From an uncultured Bacteriovoracaceae bacterium (GTDB lineage: Bacteria; Desulfobacterota; Desulfomonilia; UBA1062), in assembly GCA_964400685.1 (NCBI GenBank), contig CAYNVT010000004.1, positions 606 through 64,605 of the forward strand: 64,000 nucleotides of DNA, written 5' to 3'. Of this stretch, positions 5,792 to 53,640 are shown in pieces (position 1 is the stretch's first letter; every line of letters begins with the position of its first letter). A program made the translations under genes and the position numbers. Under the pieces are notes generated by a model. That model ran no database searches and was not told where the DNA came from. It worked only from the letters and a program-made list of their open reading frames with translations.

Positions 5792-7006
5792 CTAGTTTAA
5801 CAGCGCCGTGATGCTTGCGCTCATTTCCCTCATATAGAGAGCCTGTATTGTGAGGGAGTTTTTTCCGTCTGTTATGTTCCAGACATTTGTAAACATGAGA
5901 GTCGTGATGCCGGTATCCGTATTATGATACATGTCAGTCAGATATCCCTGATGAGCCCCGCCGTGCCCCCAGCCTAAACCTGGGACATACTCGAGCCCCA
6001 GTCCGTACAGAACAGACGAGCCTTCCTTCTGCGGCAGCGCCGCCTGCTTCATAATTTCAACAGTATCCTCAGTAAGGCCGGCCTCGCCCGAGAGAAGTCT
6101 TCTGCACCAGAGCGCAAGATCATACGGCGTAGTTATCAGGTTTCCTTCCGCAATATTTGCAGTCAGGTTATCCTCAGTTACATCAACGAGAGGTGAAGCG
6201 CCTGTATAAAAATAGCCGGGAACAAAAGGCGAAGGCAGCGCGTTCTGATGAGAATTGACAACCAGGGATGTATCAGAAAGCCCATTACCGAATATGAACT
6301 CATCCCTGATGAAATCATTGTAATTTACCCCCGATACCCTTTCGATGATTTTCCCCAGAAGCGAATAGCCGGTGTTTGAATAATGGTATTTTAGCCCCGG
6401 AGCCGAATCTGAAAGCTGATATTGGGCGACAATCCCAAGCAGTTCGTCAAAGGTGAACTGATGGTACGGGTCCCCTTCTTTCACATAATCTATATAATTC
6501 TTTCCGCCAAAGGGAGGGCCTTTATCTTCGGGGATATTCGAATTTGCCACATCGAAAACTCCTCCCCAGTGCATTAAAAGCATCTTTATGGTTATCTGGT
6601 GCTTGTATGGAATGTCATAATCAACCGTGTCCGGAATGTATGGATTCGACGTTCCCGGAATATCATCAGTTATGTAATCATCGATATCAAGAAGACCCTG
6701 CTGATAAAGAAGCATTATGGCGGCAGCCGTAAATGTTTTGGTGGTGCTTGCGCTCCTGAATCTGTAATAGTTTTTTACATTGTTTCCCATTGCTGTACTC
6801 AAAAAATAATCACCCCCGGGAGAGAGTATCTGCATGGCCACACCCCCTCCGAAACCGGGTTTGCCGTTTGAATATGCACCCCATGCGGAATCAAGGGTTG
6901 ATTGCATCGAGTCCTGCAGGTTCACATCGCTGTTGCCGCTCGAGTTGCTGCATGCGGATATCAGGATCAGTATCGCCACATAAAGGAGATATCTTGTCTG
7001 GTACAT
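5792..7006 (-). CDS. Serine hydrolase, beta-lactamase/transpeptidase-fold lipoprotein
   Basis: Lipoprotein signal (..LISAC); S-x-x-K motif STTK; YxN-like YSNTGY; 404 aa. Confidence 0.75.
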   Translation of the reverse strand: MYQTRYLLYVAILILISACSNSSGNSDVNLQDSMQSTLDSAWGAYSNGKPGFGGGVAMQILSPGGDYFLSTAMGNNVKNYYRFRSASTTKTFTAAAIMLLYQQGLLDIDDYITDDIPGTSNPYIPDTVDYDIPYKHQITIKMLLMHWGGVFDVANSNIPEDKGPPFGGKNYIDYVKEGDPYHQFTFDELLGIVAQYQLSDSAPGLKYHYSNTGYSLLGKIIERVSGVNYNDFIRDEFIFGNGLSDTSLVVNSHQNALPSPFVPGYFYTGASPLVDVTEDNLTANIAEGNLITTPYDLALWCRRLLSGEAGLTEDTVEIMKQAALPQKEGSSVLYGLGLEYVPGLGWGHGGAHQGYLTDMYHNTDTGITTLMFTNVWNITDGKNSLTIQALYMREMSASITALLN

Positions 7007-7019
7007 ACATGGCCTCCCT

Positions 7020-8078
7020 TTAATTATTTTCTATCGCCAGGTATGAGTACAATGCCATGAAATCATCCAGCGGGATGCTGAATATGCCCCTTGCTGTCGT
7101 ATAGCCGTTGTCAATTCCGTCAGGCCCCTCTGGGGTAAAGTCGTATGCCATAGGGTTCCACATGATAAGCTTTCCGGCAGAAGCATCAAAATCCATCACT
7201 GCATAGACATGGTCCCAGGGCAGATGAGAGGTGTTTTTTTTCAGCATCAGGGCTTCGGCCATAAGGTTGCCATCATGCATTTTCTGAAGGGCCTTTTTAA
7301 GCTCCCCCCTTGCGATATCGTCAATCTTGAAAACGGCTGCATCGTTACCTGTCCAGCGTTTGACGATGGAGCCTATCGGCACGCCCGGCCTGTCAATCGC
7401 TACAGTCGGGTCAGGAATGGCGGCGGATTTAGCACTCGTTTGCGACAAAATAGTTCCCAGCGCCTTTTCCAGCACCGGCATCCATAGGCCTCCTGACAGC
7501 GTAGAGGCCGAATCATTGAATGCCATCTCGGCATCCGTCGGTTCTGTTACTGTCGCCTCATCTCCGTTGGGGAAAACCACATGGTAAGTTTTGTCAGGTT
7601 TTTGTGTTATAGCTTTTTTTATGACATCACTCCGGTATTTCGCAATCCAGCCTGTACCCGAAAAGAAATAGCAGTCTCCCGCCGGTCCCTGCGCCATGGT
7701 ATCGAAATCGGGCTGTCCAGGTGCGAAGAGAACACGGTTGACGCCTTTGAGTTTCTCGACATCCTTCTGGTAGAGCTCAAGGGTCTTGTCATCCTGTATT
7801 GCAACGGCGCTTGCCTTATCAATGGAATCCAGCTTGTTTTTTCTCATATAGGTCTCAAGCGCCACAAGCGCAGCAGCATTCTCACCTTTGAATTCGGGCC
7901 TTGCAATGGCTGCAAGCAGATCATCCTTCTGCACGGTGTCATTGCCGTTTGACCATTTATTCCAGTTATTTGCGACAACATCGCCAAGAGACGCCGCAGA
8001 CAGCCGCGGCTGAAAACAAAATATCAGGACCAGAACAGTTAAAGATATTCTTGCAAAAAGCAGATTATAGGTCTTCAT
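7020..8078 (-). CDS. Secreted calpain-like (peptidase C2 / papain-fold) cysteine protease
   Basis: Signal peptide; calpain catalytic triad context QGPAGDCYFFSGTGW (Cys), DHVYAVMDFD (His), LIMWNPM (Asn). Confidence 0.55.
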   Translation of the reverse strand: MKTYNLLFARISLTVLVLIFCFQPRLSAASLGDVVANNWNKWSNGNDTVQKDDLLAAIARPEFKGENAAALVALETYMRKNKLDSIDKASAVAIQDDKTLELYQKDVEKLKGVNRVLFAPGQPDFDTMAQGPAGDCYFFSGTGWIAKYRSDVIKKAITQKPDKTYHVVFPNGDEATVTEPTDAEMAFNDSASTLSGGLWMPVLEKALGTILSQTSAKSAAIPDPTVAIDRPGVPIGSIVKRWTGNDAAVFKIDDIARGELKKALQKMHDGNLMAEALMLKKNTSHLPWDHVYAVMDFDASAGKLIMWNPMAYDFTPEGPDGIDNGYTTARGIFSIPLDDFMALYSYLAIENN

Positions 8079-9134: not shown

Positions 9135-9737
9135 ATGATAACAGGAGTTGATGATAAAATCCGCCGCTGCCCCTGGGTTGATACGAGCAAACCCGATTAC
9201 GTACATTATCATGACAAAGAATGGGGTGTCCCGGTTTATGATGACAGGCTTATATTTGAATTTCTGACACTCGAATCCGCACAGGCAGGGCTGAGCTGGT
9301 ATACAATCCTTAAAAAGAGAGAGAATTACCGGACCGCGTTTAAAAACTTCGAGCCGGAAAAGATTATTCTTTTTGATGAAAAGAAAGTTGAAGAGCTGCT
9401 TCAGAATCAGGGAATCATAAGAAACCGTTTGAAGATCGAAGCGACAATAAACAATGCCCGCCGTTTCCTTGAAGTTAAGGCGGAATTCGGAAGCTTTTCC
9501 AAATACATATGGGGATTTGTCGGAAGCAGGCCCATAATTAACGAGATACGAACCTTGTCGGACTACAAGCCGACAAGCAGAGAATCGGATGCGTTAAGCA
9601 GAGACCTTAAGAAAAGAGGCTTTAAATTTCTTGGTTCAACCGTATGCTATGCGCACATGCAGGCTACCGGCATGGTAAATGACCATTCTATCGAGTGCTT
9701 CAGGAGAAGTGAAATAACAGGTAAATATAAAAAATAG
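9135..9737 (+). CDS. tag: DNA-3-methyladenine glycosylase I
   Basis: Strong Tag motifs: RCPW, YHDKEWGVP, FEFLTLESAQAGLSW, four Cys/His zinc ligands. Confidence 0.85.
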   Translation: MITGVDDKIRRCPWVDTSKPDYVHYHDKEWGVPVYDDRLIFEFLTLESAQAGLSWYTILKKRENYRTAFKNFEPEKIILFDEKKVEELLQNQGIIRNRLKIEATINNARRFLEVKAEFGSFSKYIWGFVGSRPIINEIRTLSDYKPTSRESDALSRDLKKRGFKFLGSTVCYAHMQATGMVNDHSIECFRRSEITGKYKK

Positions 9738-9809: not shown

Positions 9810-10301
9810 TTATTTAACTTCGTACATGCCTGAACCCAGCCACCATGTGTCGTCAACTTTTTCAACATAGCCGAGTTTGGTCTCAACGTCATTGTTATGA
9901 ACGGGATTTGGCCAGGAGTATTCAAGCCAGCCGCTGTCCTTGGCGGCAAGTTTTATAAGCTCCTGAATCACCATGACACCATTCTTGTCTTTCATGCCTA
10001 TAAGGTTTTTGCCTACAAGGTCCGGCTGTCCTCCGTGTGATATTACGGTCCCCTTGAAGTCATATGCGTAAATATAGAGTTCGCCTTTGATGAAACCGCC
10101 TTTTTTATCCATGAACTCTTTCAGGGCCTTATCCTTTCCGTTTTTCTTCGCATAAGCAACCGCACTCTTGACGAAGGCAACTACCTCGGCTTTCGAAGGA
10201 ACGGCCGGTGTTTTCACCTCCTCTTTCCCTGTTGCAAAGGCTGACTGGGCCGCTGCCATAAAGAACACCGTCATGACCAATCCGGCAATTGTCTTTTTCA
10301 T
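9810..10301 (-). CDS. Periplasmic single Cache-domain protein
   Basis: Signal peptide, Cache-like fold signature (GELYIYAYDFKGTVISHGGQPDLVGKN...WLEYSWPNP). Confidence 0.5.
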   Translation of the reverse strand: MKKTIAGLVMTVFFMAAAQSAFATGKEEVKTPAVPSKAEVVAFVKSAVAYAKKNGKDKALKEFMDKKGGFIKGELYIYAYDFKGTVISHGGQPDLVGKNLIGMKDKNGVMVIQELIKLAAKDSGWLEYSWPNPVHNNDVETKLGYVEKVDDTWWLGSGMYEVK

Positions 10302-10642
10302 ACGATTCCTCTTTTCTGATTCTCAGTTAAAGATAGTTCGTCATCTTAAGATAATATCTTTAATTCAGCATCACCTGTCATGGTCGATATGGATGGAAGC
10401 TCAATTGACATGAATTTGTAACGCAACTATATTAGTGCAGATCTGTTTAAGCGTTTTGCCGTGAAATCGATACCCGGAACATTTTTAATTTGGAAATAAT
10501 AGGTTTATCAGAAATCATGCATGAAGATGAGCCAGGCATTCAGGACAGCAATGAATCTGGAATACATGTTCTGGGACGGAACATACAACGATGTGAAATG
10601 GATTGAATGACAATGCGGCGCAATCGCAGGTAGAATGTATAT

Positions 10643-11939: not shown

Positions 11940-11968
11940 ATTATGTTATTTCCCTTAAATCAGAATGT

Positions 11969-13882
11969 CTATTGAGGCCATCTGCCACCTTTGTAAATAC
12001 CATCCCAGAACATGTATTCCAGCTTCATGGCTTTTGCAAAAACTTCTTTCATTTTTTTTCTGTTTGACTCACTCCCGGCAAGCATCAGGACATTTCCATA
12101 ATCCGACAGTATTTTAACCTGGCTTTTTTCCCAGGTTTCACCAGAATATTCGTCGATCCACTGTTGGTATTTGTTGGCTTTATTTATTGAGACACTCTTC
12201 ATATCTTTTCCTATCTGATAGTATATCCAATGGCACGGAATTACAGCCATCAGGCCAACTTCAAAAGGATCGAGCGTGGCTGTTTTAATAAGGAATGAAT
12301 TATATAACTCCGTTTCAGGCAAGGGCTCCATTGTTAAAAGATCATCATTGCTCACTCCCCATTTTGCTAAATAACGGGTGTGAACACTCTGTATCTCCTC
12401 ATCTAATGACTCAAGAAGCCCTTTTATGATGTCTGTTGCGGTATTGTCCGGTGCTTTTGACAGCAATATCCCATATACTTTCCGGAAATTCTGAAGGAAT
12501 AAATAATCCTGTACTATATAGTTTCTGAATAATTGTTCATCGAGGTTACCGGCAAGCAATTCCCTGTTGAAAGGCAAATTAAATATCTTCTCATAAAATG
12601 GGTAGTTATCATCCCATACCTGGCACATATAGTTTTTTTGAGGGCTTGCTTCTTCAGCAAGAGCATTCATGACCGCGATCATCTCATCCCATTTCTCATC
12701 AGGGTCAGGCTCCTGCCATGCACTGCTCTGGACAATAACGACATGCCTGGACGGATCAATATATATTGCCTGTCCGTATATGCCCATAGCCATAAAAACT
12801 CCGCCTTCAAGCAGCCACCACTGATAGGCATACCCGAGGGTTTCGGAAAAATTATCGTTTACTGCTAAAGGTCGTGGCAATTCAATTGCTCCCTTTGGAG
12901 TCGTAGATTCTAAAATCCATTCATTTGAGACAATACGGTGTCCATTCAAACCGCCACCGTTCATTACCATAAGGCCGAATCGGCCGTAGTCCCTTAACGT
13001 AGCGGCAAAACCGACTGATGATGAAATCTGGGCCTGGCTGTTTCCCCTATAATAAAAGGCGTCGCTCTCTGCACCGAGCCCTGACCAGAGTTTTTTCCCG
13101 CAATACTCGTTAAGTGGCATACCGGTCGCAGATTCAAGGACAAGGACCAGCACTTGTGTTGAAATACTCTGGTATTCGAATTGTGCGCCAGGGCTTTTAG
13201 AAGATTTAAGCGAAGCAGCAAGCTCGGAAAAAGAAGGAGAGCCTTCAATCCAGGACTGAAGAAGAAGAGGAAAATCACTGTCCGGCGCCATATAATCTTC
13301 ATTCCATTTAACCCCTGCAGCCATCTGGAGCAGATTTTTGATAGTTGCCTGTGCAAATCCGCTTTTTGAAAGATATGGCAGATAACGCACCACAGGATCA
13401 TTGACATTTCCTATTATACCTTCATCAATGGCTATGCCCGTAAGGACTGACACAATAGACTTTGCCATTGAATTTGAAATGAATTTTGATGCAGGTCCTG
13501 CATTGTTAAAGTATTTTTCTACCAAAATCTGGTTCTGATGCAGAGCAAGGAATCCAAGAACATTATTCCTTTTGAAATATTCATCAAGAGTATAACTTTT
13601 GCCCTGAAATGTATATTTCAACTCAAGGTCCTTATCCGAATGTTTTAGTTGATAAACCGGATCAGCCCTGCGGACCCAGTCCAGTTTCAGGTCCTGTTGT
13701 TCCAGATCAACAAGGCCATGGGACCCCGTCTGGCAAACCATATAGGAATACCTGCCCTTAAAGGCAGGTGCAGATAACAGATCGACTTTTCCGGCTGAAA
13801 CCGATGCTTCCAGAGAAACAAGAGACATGAACAGTATGAAAACAAAAAGACCTGAAGCTAAAATCCATTTAATGCATTTCAT
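11969..13882 (-). CDS. Secreted fusion protein: beta-lactamase-family serine hydrolase domain + TenA/thiaminase-II (aminopyrimidine aminohydrolase) domain
   Basis: Signal peptide; S-x-x-K (SMAK) in N-terminal ~400 aa; C-terminal ~210 aa matches TenA (FRNYIVQDYLFL, catalytic Cys in VIPCHWIYYQIG, YQQWIDEY, EYMFWDG). Confidence 0.65.
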   Translation of the reverse strand: MKCIKWILASGLFVFILFMSLVSLEASVSAGKVDLLSAPAFKGRYSYMVCQTGSHGLVDLEQQDLKLDWVRRADPVYQLKHSDKDLELKYTFQGKSYTLDEYFKRNNVLGFLALHQNQILVEKYFNNAGPASKFISNSMAKSIVSVLTGIAIDEGIIGNVNDPVVRYLPYLSKSGFAQATIKNLLQMAAGVKWNEDYMAPDSDFPLLLQSWIEGSPSFSELAASLKSSKSPGAQFEYQSISTQVLVLVLESATGMPLNEYCGKKLWSGLGAESDAFYYRGNSQAQISSSVGFAATLRDYGRFGLMVMNGGGLNGHRIVSNEWILESTTPKGAIELPRPLAVNDNFSETLGYAYQWWLLEGGVFMAMGIYGQAIYIDPSRHVVIVQSSAWQEPDPDEKWDEMIAVMNALAEEASPQKNYMCQVWDDNYPFYEKIFNLPFNRELLAGNLDEQLFRNYIVQDYLFLQNFRKVYGILLSKAPDNTATDIIKGLLESLDEEIQSVHTRYLAKWGVSNDDLLTMEPLPETELYNSFLIKTATLDPFEVGLMAVIPCHWIYYQIGKDMKSVSINKANKYQQWIDEYSGETWEKSQVKILSDYGNVLMLAGSESNRKKMKEVFAKAMKLEYMFWDGIYKGGRWPQ

Positions 13883-14047
13883 AACTCACCTCCTAAGTAA
13901 AAAATAACATCGGAAAACTCAGATACAAATCTTGAGATGAGCTAAAAAACGTCTTCATCAATTTCGCCGGTCTTTGGAGCCTCAGGTTTTCAAATCCATA
14001 AATAGTCGTCCCTTAAAAACCCGATTAGGGGTCAGACTGGCGCCTGT

Positions 14048-15622
14048 TTACTGTTTTCCTCCGCAAAGCCTTTTATATTCTTTTCCATATGGTTTAAGGT
14101 CACAGTCTTTGCAGTTTACCTTTGCATAATCAAGGATTATTCCAATTCCTACACAATAGGCCTCGATTTCGAATTTCTGATAGGACCTGGGTGTGCCTGA
14201 TTTGTATTCCGCGCTGGTGGTTTTATCACTGCATTGCCTCGCGTGCGTGAGTTCATGTTCGTACATCGCCTTGAAAAGCACATCGGGATAACATTTTTTT
14301 CTGTAGTCGTCCCTGACTTCCTCGGCATTTACAACCTTGCAGTCATTATTTGTCGCCATGTCTATCTTTGCCGAGCCTCCATCTCCAGGCCCTGCTGAAT
14401 CTTGAGCTGAACTCTGTGAAGGGTTGTAACCGGGGTCCCACCAGTGTTTCCTGTATTGCCTCACTCCTTCTTTCGCCACCCTTTCATCATAAACCTCTCC
14501 ATCACCCTCATGCGAACCGTCCCATCCGTCTTGAGCGGCCTTGTTTATCAATTCTTCACTCGAATAGGCACGAATCATTGAGATGCTTTCCTTGAGCTCA
14601 TCTATCATGTCTTCGCAATCATCATGAATCTTAAATTCCCAGCTCACCTTAAGCGTCTCGGTTGTTTTAATATCAGGGTCAGCCTGGCCCTCAGCATTGC
14701 CAGACTGATCTTTCATCGACTCCTTTATCGTAGCTTCGGCCTCGGCAAGTTCCTTTTCAAGTTCGGGCGACATTTTGGAAAGCTCCTTCAAGGATTCAAG
14801 GGTCTTATCCATCGTGTCCGTCACTGTCTCACTGACCGAGCCGTAAATGGATTTTATGTCCGGGTAATAAACCTCGCCTTTAATCTTCTTCCCGCCGTCA
14901 TATCTACCTTTAAAAGATGCAATAAGCGGCAGCATCCGCTCCGAGCCTGGAGCGGTAGCGCTGCAAACCCTTCCGGAACTGTCACAACTTGCGGTTATCT
15001 GCGGTTCAATATCAATAGCTTTGAGCATAATGGGAGAAATGTATTTTACATCCTTTATGAAAGTCTCATTTTCGCATGCATATCTGGTTTCCGACTGTGA
15101 ATTCCCGTCTATCAGCAATGCGGGTTTCTTGTTCAAAGCAATTGTAAAGACATATTCCTTTGTATCAGGGTCAACGCTCAAGACAGACTGAGACTCATAT
15201 TTTGGAAAATCCGGATGAAGAAGCCCTCTAAAGCTGCTGTGCTCTTTTTCTGAACTGCCAGGTGTAACATAATCGACCATGTTCTTATCACCCGGGCCTT
15301 TGCTTGACCTTACGCACCTGGATTTTTTCACCTGATTGAACTTGTTTTCAGTCATTGTATAGCTGACATCAGGATTCGAAATTCTCAGGTTCTGGGCCGA
15401 TTCGCCGCAGGCCTTGATTACCGCCCTGAAACGGGCATTTTCTTTAAGACTATGCCTTGATGTCGAGTCCTTATCCGATGTGTCTTTGTATAATGAATTG
15501 CCTAGACTATAATCAATAATGATATCGCCAATCCATATTGGTTCTGAGGCATTCGCTGTTGCAAAAATCAGGCAAACGGCAATCATTGACAAAAGAGCCG
15601 GGGCTGACAGTCTTCCATTCAC
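14048..15622 (-). CDS. Secreted hypothetical protein with C-terminal HExxH(+E) zincin-like motif
   Basis: Signal peptide MNGRLSAPALLSMIAVCLIFATANA; acidic coiled region; YEHELTHARQ ... FEIEAY near C-terminus; many Cys in C-terminal 60 aa. Confidence 0.4.
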   Translation of the reverse strand: MNGRLSAPALLSMIAVCLIFATANASEPIWIGDIIIDYSLGNSLYKDTSDKDSTSRHSLKENARFRAVIKACGESAQNLRISNPDVSYTMTENKFNQVKKSRCVRSSKGPGDKNMVDYVTPGSSEKEHSSFRGLLHPDFPKYESQSVLSVDPDTKEYVFTIALNKKPALLIDGNSQSETRYACENETFIKDVKYISPIMLKAIDIEPQITASCDSSGRVCSATAPGSERMLPLIASFKGRYDGGKKIKGEVYYPDIKSIYGSVSETVTDTMDKTLESLKELSKMSPELEKELAEAEATIKESMKDQSGNAEGQADPDIKTTETLKVSWEFKIHDDCEDMIDELKESISMIRAYSSEELINKAAQDGWDGSHEGDGEVYDERVAKEGVRQYRKHWWDPGYNPSQSSAQDSAGPGDGGSAKIDMATNNDCKVVNAEEVRDDYRKKCYPDVLFKAMYEHELTHARQCSDKTTSAEYKSGTPRSYQKFEIEAYCVGIGIILDYAKVNCKDCDLKPYGKEYKRLCGGKQ

Positions 15623-53467: not shown

Positions 53468-53544
53468 TGGCGGGAGCGACGGGACTCGAACCCGCGACCT
53501 TCGGCGTGACAGGCCGACGTTATAACCAACTTAACTACGCCCCC
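53468..53544 (-). tRNA. tRNA-Asp (anticodon GTC)
   Basis: Cloverleaf read on minus strand: GGGGGCGTAGTTAAGTTGGTTATAACGTCGGCCTGTCACGCCGAAGGTCGCGGGTTCGAGTCCCGTCGCTCCCGCCA, 77 nt, CCA encoded. Confidence 0.85.
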
Positions 53545-53565: not shown

Positions 53566-53640
53566 TGGTAGGCGGAACAGGGTTTGAACCTGTGACCCTC
53601 GGCTTGTAAGGCCGATGCTCTCCCGCTGAGCTACCCGCCC
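53566..53640 (-). tRNA. tRNA-Val (anticodon TAC)
   Basis: Minus strand: GGGCGGGTAGCTCAGCGGGAGAGCATCGGCCTTACAAGCCGAGGGTCACAGGTTCAAACCCTGTTCCGCCTACCA, 75 nt. Confidence 0.85.

Follow-up and report, generated by a model that had tools for sequence, protein, structure and literature searches.

Fragments of thiamin, among them HMP (4-amino-5-hydroxymethyl-2-methylpyrimidine), AmMP (4-amino-5-aminomethyl-2-methylpyrimidine) and the N-formyl form of the latter (formylaminopyrimidine or FAMP), are exchanged between microbes, and de novo synthesis of the vitamin is beyond most environmental bacteria. In the cytoplasm of Bacillus, FAMP, a common product of thiamin degradation, is converted to AmMP by YlmB, a metalloenzyme unrelated to the hydrolase described here. 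The next enzyme, TenA, has been called "the intracellular enzyme thiaminase II" (PMC5627462). The enzyme for the FAMP-to-AmMP step is known only from Bacillus, and it is missing and unidentified in many lineages that have TenA but not YlmB (PMC10470507). Here, we describe a gene in a stretch of 64,000 nucleotides (referred to as the window) from an uncultured bacterium labelled Bacteriovoracaceae (contig CAYNVT010000004.1), which joins a predicted export leader, a serine amidohydrolase of the beta-lactamase fold and a TenA domain in a single polypeptide. The hydrolase belongs to a clade in which every member is linked to TenA. We propose, with a probability of roughly 0.45, that the fusion protein mediates a two-step conversion outside of the cytoplasm, in which an N-acyl (formyl) aminopyrimidine would be turned into AmMP and then into HMP.

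The fusion gene is a complete open reading frame (ORF), and its annotated start is backed by a perfect Shine–Dalgarno sequence (Table 1). Pfam assigns two domains to the protein: Beta-lactamase (PF00144) at residues 112–396 (2.2e-27, 96.6 bits, cutoff 27) and TENA_THI-4 (PF03070) at residues 429–630 (1.5e-36, 126.6 bits, cutoff 22), the latter covering profile positions 7–208 of 210. Both halves of the initial annotation, which had read an SxxK serine hydrolase of about 400 residues followed by a complete TenA domain, are thereby confirmed. The S-x-x-K named there is S138-M-A-K141 and the catalytic Cys of its VIPCHW motif is C550, which aligns with Cys135 of B. subtilis TenA. An AlphaFold2 model of the fusion protein (predicted local distance difference test score, pLDDT, 79; predicted template modelling score, pTM, 0.62) was used for the fold and the domain boundaries alone, and a Foldseek search with this model returned no solved structure that covers both domains. 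The same architecture is found in 19 protein clusters, which are 50–58% identical to the window protein with a mean column identity of 72%, and the catalytic residues of both domains are invariant across all of them. As the architecture recurs in this way, the fusion is not an assembly artefact or chimera. The GTDB representative genomes that carry it are metagenome-assembled genomes (MAGs) labelled Dehalococcoidia, Chloroflexi and Omnitrophota.

The coupling of the two domains is most evident from the phylogeny of the hydrolase. In a neighbour-joining tree of 121 hydrolase domains, the 21 which are linked to TenA and one that was labelled "alone" (P0023) form a single clade with bootstrap support of 89/100, apart from the 99 other homologs. 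Mean hydrolase identity is 64% inside this clade and 53% to the other homologs. A TenA neighbour was predicted for P0023 from the tree and was then found: a TenA gene encoding 246 residues starts 14 bp downstream, on a contig of 2.5 kb. Linkage to TenA is therefore seen in 22 of the 22 members of the clade, as fusions in 19 and as split, adjacent genes in three. The nearest standalone hydrolase (P0020, locus L010) is followed 42 bp downstream by a standalone exported TenA, and a second split pair (L019) is arranged in the same way. In these two split pairs, which were read individually, each protein has a leader of its own, and the presence of one on the TenA indicates that TenA export is selected in its own right. 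The TenA-linked hydrolases are further set apart by six positions, including W193 and F204. A separate pairing is present in a Syntrophobacteraceae MAG (L014), where a standalone exported TenA (259–918) and, 64 bp further on, an exported PF00144 hydrolase (982–2208) are encoded, the latter with no significant BLASTP similarity to the hydrolase of the fusion; judged by sequence, this single case may be an independent, analogous association. In ordinary TenA fusions the partners are ThiD or ThiE and, as these are thiamin enzymes, the fusion partner of TenA is usually a pathway neighbour.

Export is indicated by the N-terminus of the fusion protein, MKCIKWILASGLFVFILFMSLVSLEASVSA followed by GK. 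This has the n/h/c layout of a Sec leader: the n-region is positively charged, the hydrophobic core spans 19 residues and V-S-A precedes the predicted cut before G31, a site that was read by eye from the -3/-1 rule. In the AlphaFold2 model the leader is a helix spanning residues 2–22, followed by a disordered tether. Across the family, leaders were called in a hydrophobicity scan by an N-terminal peak of at least 2.0, and this is reached by 17 of the 19 fusions and by all 20 standalone clade members, compared with only one of 29 ordinary TenAs. The two fusions below this value are P0017 (1.95) and P0014; the latter is a truncated gene call, and its locus (L004) encodes MKKRNLSLLVCMTLCLLFVAQVGCS in frame 5' of the called start. 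The standalone clade TenAs that were inspected all have a leader, some of the signal peptidase I type and others with the lipoboxes LSGC, LPAC, LAGC, LSAC or LTGC. The signal peptide of the initial annotation, which might have been lost had the start been re-annotated, thus stands, since the strong ribosome-binding site supports the ATG. Taken together, the fusion protein is predicted to be directed to export by a Sec-type leader.

The TenAs of this kind form a small and distinct group. The exported clade is defined by a signal or lipoprotein leader, a TenA profile score of more than 280 bits (alignment A5) and a partner from the 22-member hydrolase clade, fused or adjacent; the window fusion has all of these, including the dedicated PF00144 partner. 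A search with the TenA domain alone retrieved 36 standalone proteins of 152–299 residues with 46–56% identity to the query, and nearly all of the standalone clade TenAs are 240–299 residues long, compared with about 220 in ordinary TenAs. In an exhaustive profile search of 1.84 billion representatives, approximately six of 3,784 TenA-family representatives belong to the exported clade, which is sharply delimited, with a step in the profile score between 282 and 196 bits at its boundary. On the TenA tree, which has no bootstrap and is descriptive, the exported TenAs are monophyletic and separated from ordinary TenAs by a long stem branch. Here, fused, split and standalone states are interleaved: fused P0018 and P0019 lie beside split P0122/L083, and fused P0010, P0011 and P0015 are nested among standalone Dehalococcoidia forms. 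This interleaving implies that the hydrolase and TenA have been fused and separated repeatedly, so far as a tree of sequences can tell.

Among GTDB species representatives, the exported clade occurs in uncultured MAGs only, with the labels Dehalococcoidia, Chloroflexi, Syntrophobacteraceae, Syntrophus, Omnitrophota, Victivallales, Actinomycetota, Acidimicrobiales and "Bacteriovoracaceae". The names of the samples and isolates, from which alone habitats were read, suggest digesters, a sulfidic spring, anoxic lake water and groundwater. An exported catalytic thiol would fit this apparent restriction to anaerobe-type lineages. Two further observations concern TenA loci. Directly upstream of the standalone exported TenA of an Actinomycetota MAG there is a group II intron domain (RF00029, 51 bits; L024:7033-7108, minus strand) with a fragment of a reverse-transcriptase-like ORF. 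In addition, the exhaustive search returned a leaderless tandem TenA–TenA protein of 470 residues (P0164), outside of the exported clade, in which both domains are full-length and have the active-site Cys.

The nearest solved relatives of the hydrolase domain are PIB-1 (8rlj, 1e-55) and the 6-aminohexanoate-dimer hydrolase NylB, an amidase of nylon oligomers (4e-33), with Foldseek template modelling (TM) scores of 0.81–0.84 and 0.71–0.75, respectively. S138, K141 and Y237 align with the catalytic Ser112, Lys115 and Tyr215 of NylB, and Y197 aligns with Tyr170; each of these four residues is retained by 97% or more of the 123 homologs compared. The likeness to NylB does not extend to Asp181, which contacts the substrate amino group in NylB and aligns with L208 in a variable column. 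Class C beta-lactamase was considered and ruled out: the NCBI bla_class_C model gives 13 bits where 415 are required, Y-x-N is replaced by Y237-Q-S and K-T-G is replaced by G367-I-Y-G-Q371, as in NylB and PIB-1. By sequence and fold the domain is thus classified as an amidohydrolase of the NylB/PIB-1 type. The term "beta-lactamase-fold" used in the initial annotation is therefore correct for the fold and fails for a beta-lactamase proper. The same holds for family members that are named "serine hydrolase", "CubicO group peptidase (beta-lactamase class C family)" or "hypothetical protein" in public databases: neither their motifs nor their model scores are those of a beta-lactamase proper. "Thiaminase II" is a further public name within the family. 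The M20 metallopeptidase fold of YlmB was not detected in the fusion, to which Pfam assigns PF00144 and PF03070 only. If FAMP deformylation is real, the hydrolase would be an analogue of YlmB and not a homologue.

The C-terminal domain matches the TenAs of Helicobacter pylori and B. subtilis in Foldseek at TM 0.87–0.88. Its first 116 residues map one-to-one onto the B. subtilis numbering, with two one-residue gaps afterwards. The equivalents of Asp44, Tyr112, Cys135, Tyr163, Glu205 and Phe208 are invariant or nearly so across the exported clade, and C550 is invariant in 19 fusions and 18 standalone members. Position 47 is Phe in the window protein and Phe or Tyr clade-wide; it is also Phe in wild-type H. 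pylori TenA. We take the roles of the pocket residues (Tyr47, Tyr112, Tyr163 and Phe208 in B. subtilis) from the mutagenesis literature on that enzyme, in which Asp44 and Glu205 bind and activate the aminopyrimidine. A PqqC-like or other heme-oxygenase-like protein, named at the outset as a possible identity for this region, is not what was found, as the domain is TenA_C with its Cys, Asp and Glu. By the NCBI criterion it is classified as a divergent TenA_C subfamily and not as an equivalog.

These features can be assembled into a salvage pathway. After export by the Sec-type leader, the protein would reside in the periplasm of diderms, and in Dehalococcoidia-type relatives it would be held by a lipid anchor at the membrane's outer face. 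There, the amidohydrolase, with Ser138 as the nucleophile together with Lys141 and Tyr237, would deacylate N-acylated AmMP to AmMP, the likeliest substrate being FAMP or a ring-opened formamide form of thiamin. TenA_C, with Cys550 as the nucleophile, Asp459, Glu622 and a pocket formed by Tyr527, Tyr579 and Phe625, would then exchange the aminomethyl nitrogen for water to give HMP and ammonium, a chemistry assigned because the TenA active site is fully conserved. A hypothetical transporter would import HMP, which would enter ThiD/ThiE-dependent thiamin synthesis. Both domains would require water only and no cofactor and, as both reactions are cofactor-free hydrolyses, they are feasible outside of the cytoplasm. 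That the modules are strictly co-inherited, with so short a linker between them, suggests that one reaction follows the other.

NylB, the closest relative of the hydrolase that has been characterised, acts on amides that link an acyl group to a primary alkylamine, and FAMP contains a bond of this type. The choice of FAMP follows from this specificity, from the chemistry of TenA_C, from the tendency of TenA to be fused to pathway neighbours and from the lack of YlmB in TenA lineages. That a serine amidase joined to TenA could do both salvage steps in one periplasmic protein had been suggested in the initial annotation. This idea is strengthened by the complete coupling, the split versions and the recurrent fusion and fission, while formylaminopyrimidine is still a substrate that we infer. 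A bolder proposal, which we make tentatively and at clearly less than even odds, is that the clade supplies an extracellular, cofactor-free two-enzyme machine that rebuilds HMP from thiamin breakdown products in the environment prior to uptake, and that its serine amidases are the long-sought formylaminopyrimidine amidohydrolase of organisms without YlmB.

Several observations weigh against a role in thiamin salvage, beginning with regulation and gene context. The initial annotation had pointed to thiamin riboswitches and thiXYZ transporters as a check. An Rfam scan at the gathering threshold found no thiamin pyrophosphate (TPP) riboswitch in the window or at approximately 21 loci of the clade, and thi genes, ThiXYZ included, were likewise not found there; the same scan detected the riboswitch at four of nine ordinary TenA loci. 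The only Rfam matches in the window are two adjacent tRNA genes (53471-53544 and 53569-53640, minus strand). No thiamin biosynthesis or transport genes are present within 0–27 kb of the fusion and, TenA aside, the window has no homolog of the genes from four riboswitch-controlled tenA operons. Instead, the annotated neighbours over this distance comprise sensor kinases, MscL, an alpha/beta hydrolase, Tag, a Cache protein, GNAT, a methyltransferase, OmpA, a START-domain protein and Fe-S proteins. The gene neighbourhood changes from lineage to lineage, and an enrichment analysis of neighbour families, using 60 flanking proteins, yielded nothing beyond two-component systems, amino-acid permeases and flavin oxidoreductases, all of them lineage-specific. 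The TenA domain scores 116.4 bits with TIGR04306 (salvage_TenA, an NCBIfam equivalog), which is under the trusted cutoff of 130. For at least five of the standalone exported TenAs, no hydrolase is encoded within 3–8 kb. Finally, hydrolase homologs at about 53% identity occur without TenA, most of the wider family is standalone, and four members (P0041, P0051, P0062 and P0073; 826–868 residues) are fused to a GH39 glycosidase, so that the wider hydrolase family is not thiamin-specific. These GH39-fused hydrolases (about 51% identity; one is named Bryobacteraceae) form a monophyletic group of their own in the sister clade.

Part of this pattern would also be expected of an exported thiaminase, in which TenA cleaves intact thiamin or its analogues outside of the cell, whether to withhold the vitamin from competitors or to obtain HMP and thiazole from it, and in which the hydrolase prepares or broadens the substrates, for example acylated or esterified thiamin derivatives. 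The lack of TPP-riboswitch control fits an enzyme that acts outside of the cell's own thiamin homeostasis, and TenA enzymes do hydrolyse thiamin. In addition, there are precedents: BtTenA of Bacteroides is found in extracellular vesicles and its thiaminase activity has been measured (PMC10277260), and myxobacteria starve an oomycete with vesicle-secreted thiaminase I (PMC10499793). A thiamin-degrading exoenzyme, offered as the alternative in the initial annotation, is accordingly a live rival. However, it leaves the strictly co-inherited amidase without a clear role, BtTenA is only remotely related (2a2m, E 0.003) and characterised TenA_C enzymes prefer AmMP, with thiamin being a poor substrate (PMC5627462), and we regard it as unlikely. 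It is similarly improbable, in our estimate, that the module has been recruited for a substrate other than thiamin, namely another amide-bearing aminomethyl-heterocycle (for instance an antimetabolite, a xenobiotic or a natural product), which would be detoxified or would serve as a source of nitrogen or carbon. Such a change of substrate would account for the missing thiamin regulon and gene linkage at every locus, the long stem branch of the exported clade, the score below the equivalog cutoff, the pairing of sister hydrolases with unrelated enzymes such as GH39 and the location of the window gene in a small, probably horizontally acquired insert. It is opposed by the residues with which B. 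subtilis TenA binds and activates the 4-amino-2-methylpyrimidine ring (Asp44, Tyr112, Cys135, Tyr163, Glu205 and Phe208). The equivalents of all of these are invariant in the clade, which speaks for a substrate with an unaltered pyrimidine half.

The fusion could also be incidental, uniting two exported hydrolases with unrelated jobs and carrying no functional information. Both domain families are large and architecturally promiscuous, and the gene contexts are otherwise unconserved. Such an accident is nevertheless strongly disfavoured and very improbable, given the linkage to TenA throughout a well-supported hydrolase clade, the successful blind prediction and the retention of the linkage through repeated fusion and fission across several phyla. 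An unrelated PF00144 hydrolase beside the exported TenA of L014 points in the same direction.

Candidates for additional components of the system were rejected. A conserved third component upstream is not supported, as the unannotated proteins of 300–330 residues found there are shared only within Dehalococcoidia synteny. In two related genomes, to which it is confined, an ABC (ATP-binding cassette) transporter of the AfuA/P5PA/PhnS2-like type is encoded directly upstream of the fusion (L001:5882-9844 and L007:5971-9898). It consists of a binding protein, an ATPase and a fused double permease. An assignment as an HMP or thiamin importer was discarded with the NCBIfam models, all of which score far under their cutoffs, with 138 versus 393 for the PhnS2-like model and 42 versus 93 for the thiamine-binding-protein model. 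The nearest solved relatives are of the AfuA (sugar phosphate) and P5PA types, and DeoR, PGM (phosphoglucomutase) and AP-endonuclease-fold genes are found nearby. By homology, this transporter probably serves sugar phosphates rather than HMP.

The history of the gene in this genome can be followed by comparison with a close relative (L027), a MAG labelled "uncultured Bacteriovoracaceae", a label which is perhaps unreliable. Neighbour proteins are 85–87% identical and, in a blastn map, L027 is syntenic with the window over 4.6–15.6 kb. In L027, the methyltransferase gene and the gene for a secreted protein of 524 residues abut; in the window, a segment of approximately 2.1 kb with the fusion gene lies between them. 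The GC content of this segment is 42.5% versus 45–48% in flanking genes, and GC at third codon positions is 41.7% versus 47–51%. These lower values suggest that the segment was recently acquired by horizontal transfer; alternatively, it was precisely lost from L027. The window also retains the remnant of a standalone exported TenA, MKMSQAFRTAMNLEYMFWDGTYNDVKWIE followed by a stop, located 1.4 kb from the fusion gene and directly upstream of the GNAT gene. The remnant is 69% identical to the C-terminus of the L027 TenA (E 1e-10, tblastn), which is an intact, standalone, exported protein encoded at the same site, and its missing 5' part falls where the Tag (9135-9737) and Cache-domain (9810-10301) genes sit. 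Read most simply, this arrangement would mean that the fused gene took the place of a standalone exported TenA in this genome, and such a replacement suggests that the two are functionally interchangeable.

Other genes close to the fusion are described here for completeness. A link to the methyltransferase, which is beside the fusion and, in L008, also beside the standalone hydrolase P0021, was dismissed as coincidence: the proteins share 27% identity and a generic S-adenosylmethionine fold only, and L027 has the methyltransferase without an adjoining fusion. The 524-residue protein (14048-15622, minus strand), directly upstream of the fusion, has a leader-like N-terminus and a Cys-rich C-terminal part with a HELTH motif; it has no Pfam or NCBIfam match and is 87% identical to its L027 homolog. 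A PF00144 lipoprotein of 404 residues (5792-7006, minus strand), unrelated to the fusion's hydrolase and 85% identical to L027:5649-6860, belongs to the syntenic stretch that the two genomes have in common, with no evidence of a link to TenA. Between this gene and the alpha/beta hydrolase is an ORF of 352 residues without a Pfam match (7020-8078, minus strand), the region of which is missing from the otherwise syntenic L027.

Table 1. Positions in the window of the fusion gene, its domains and residues, and the associated segment and remnant.
Feature	Position	Strand	Basis or remark
Serine amidohydrolase::TenA fusion, predicted exported; complete 637-aa ORF plus TAG stop	11969..13882	-	ORF list, Pfam, 19 homologous fusion clusters
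Shine–Dalgarno AGGAGG	13889..13894	-	Direct sequence reading; 6 nt upstream of ATG (13880-13882)
Predicted Sec-type signal peptide, aa 1-30 (MKCIKWILASGLFVFILFMSLVSLEASVSA)	13793..13882	-	Helix 2-22 in model; clade-wide leader
Low-confidence, poorly conserved tether, aa 31-62	13697..13792	-	pLDDT <50 over residues 18-62; variable columns, alignment A1
NylB/PIB-1-type serine amidohydrolase domain, aa 63-412	12647..13696	-	PDB 8rlj, NylB alignment, Foldseek, clade analysis
Five-residue inter-domain linker, aa 413-417	12632..12646	-	Model: helix 395-412, then helix 418-434
TenA_C (thiaminase II / aminopyrimidine aminohydrolase) domain, aa 418-637	11972..12631	-	Pfam, alignments, invariant columns, Foldseek
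Catalytic S138	13469-13471	-	Codon verified
Catalytic K141	13460-13462	-	Codon verified
Catalytic Y237	13172-13174	-	Codon verified
Clade-specific W193	13304-13306	-	Flanks invariant Y197
Clade-specific F204	13271-13273	-	Flanks invariant Y197
D459	12506-12508	-	B. subtilis TenA Asp44
F462	12497-12499	-	B. subtilis TenA position 47
Y527	12302-12304	-	B. subtilis TenA Tyr112
C550	12233-12235	-	B. subtilis TenA Cys135; VIPCHW aligned with LLPCYW
Y579	12146-12148	-	B. subtilis TenA Tyr163
E622	12017-12019	-	B. subtilis TenA Glu205
F625	12008-12010	-	B. subtilis TenA Phe208
Segment of about 2.1 kb with the fusion gene, missing from the syntenic L027 site	11942..14046	.	blastn synteny, GC and GC at third codon positions
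Remnant of standalone exported TenA, last 29 codons plus stop	10521..10610	+	tblastn against L027 TenA, DNA alignment, synteny

The strictly TenA-coupled serine amidase is a concrete and easily testable candidate for the missing FAMP step, and the proposal has consequences beyond this locus. An exported TenA clade would shift part of the salvage pathway outside of the cell, where the product is open to neighbours, and this would change how the exchange of vitamin B1 precursors is modelled. If the bolder proposal is true, the recycling of the thiamin pyrimidine would be partly a "public good" in communities that their names suggest are anoxic (Dehalococcoidia, syntrophs and Omnitrophota), and it would explain why an exported enzyme with a catalytic Cys is seemingly confined to lineages usually regarded as anaerobes.

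Both folds, the salvage logic and a vesicle-packaged TenA are already known; no description of the leader-bearing TenA clade, its obligate serine-amidase partner or the fused architecture was found in the searchable literature. The salvage of base-degraded thiamin by B. subtilis TenA and YlmB follows the same logic as proposed here, in that formylaminopyrimidine is deacylated and the aminopyrimidine is then hydrolysed to HMP. B. subtilis TenA (1yaf, 2qcx) resembles the TenA domain of the fusion in fold (TM 0.87) and in the Cys, Asp, Glu and pyrimidine-stacking residues, although identity is approximately 28% and the window domain is below the TIGR04306 cutoff. The B. subtilis enzymes are cytoplasmic, whereas the fusion protein is predicted to be exported and has neither a TPP riboswitch nor a thi operon. 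Furthermore, YlmB is an M20 metallopeptidase, and the first step in the window would be mediated by an unrelated serine amidohydrolase of the beta-lactamase fold within the same polypeptide as TenA.

The best TenA match in both sequence and structure is HP1287 of H. pylori (2rd3; E 6e-21, TM 0.88). Where the B. subtilis enzyme has Tyr47, both proteins have Phe (QDYLFL), and Foldseek also lists 3ibx, the F47Y variant. HP1287 is a standalone, leaderless protein of about 220 residues, whereas the window TenA is fused and leader-bearing. On the hydrolase side, PIB-1 (PA5542 of Pseudomonas aeruginosa, 8rlj), described as a metal-dependent carbapenem hydrolase, and NylB (1wyb and others) have in common with the window hydrolase the Ser-x-x-Lys, the Tyr and the equivalent of NylB Tyr170, at identities of approximately 30% and 26%, respectively; neither is fused to or linked with TenA. 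BtTenA (BT_3146 of B. thetaiotaomicron, 2a2m) is a vesicle-packaged TenA_C that acts outside of the cytoplasm, and the terms "signal peptide" and "lipoprotein" do not occur in the paper that describes it (PMC10277260). It belongs to a different TenA sublineage and has no amidase partner. Finally, the ThiD–TenA and ThiE–TenA proteins, for example yeast THI20 (3rm5), are like the window fusion in that TenA is joined to an enzyme of an adjacent step. Their partners are cytoplasmic kinases or synthases that act downstream of HMP, whereas the partner in the window is a predicted exported hydrolase that presumably acts upstream of TenA.

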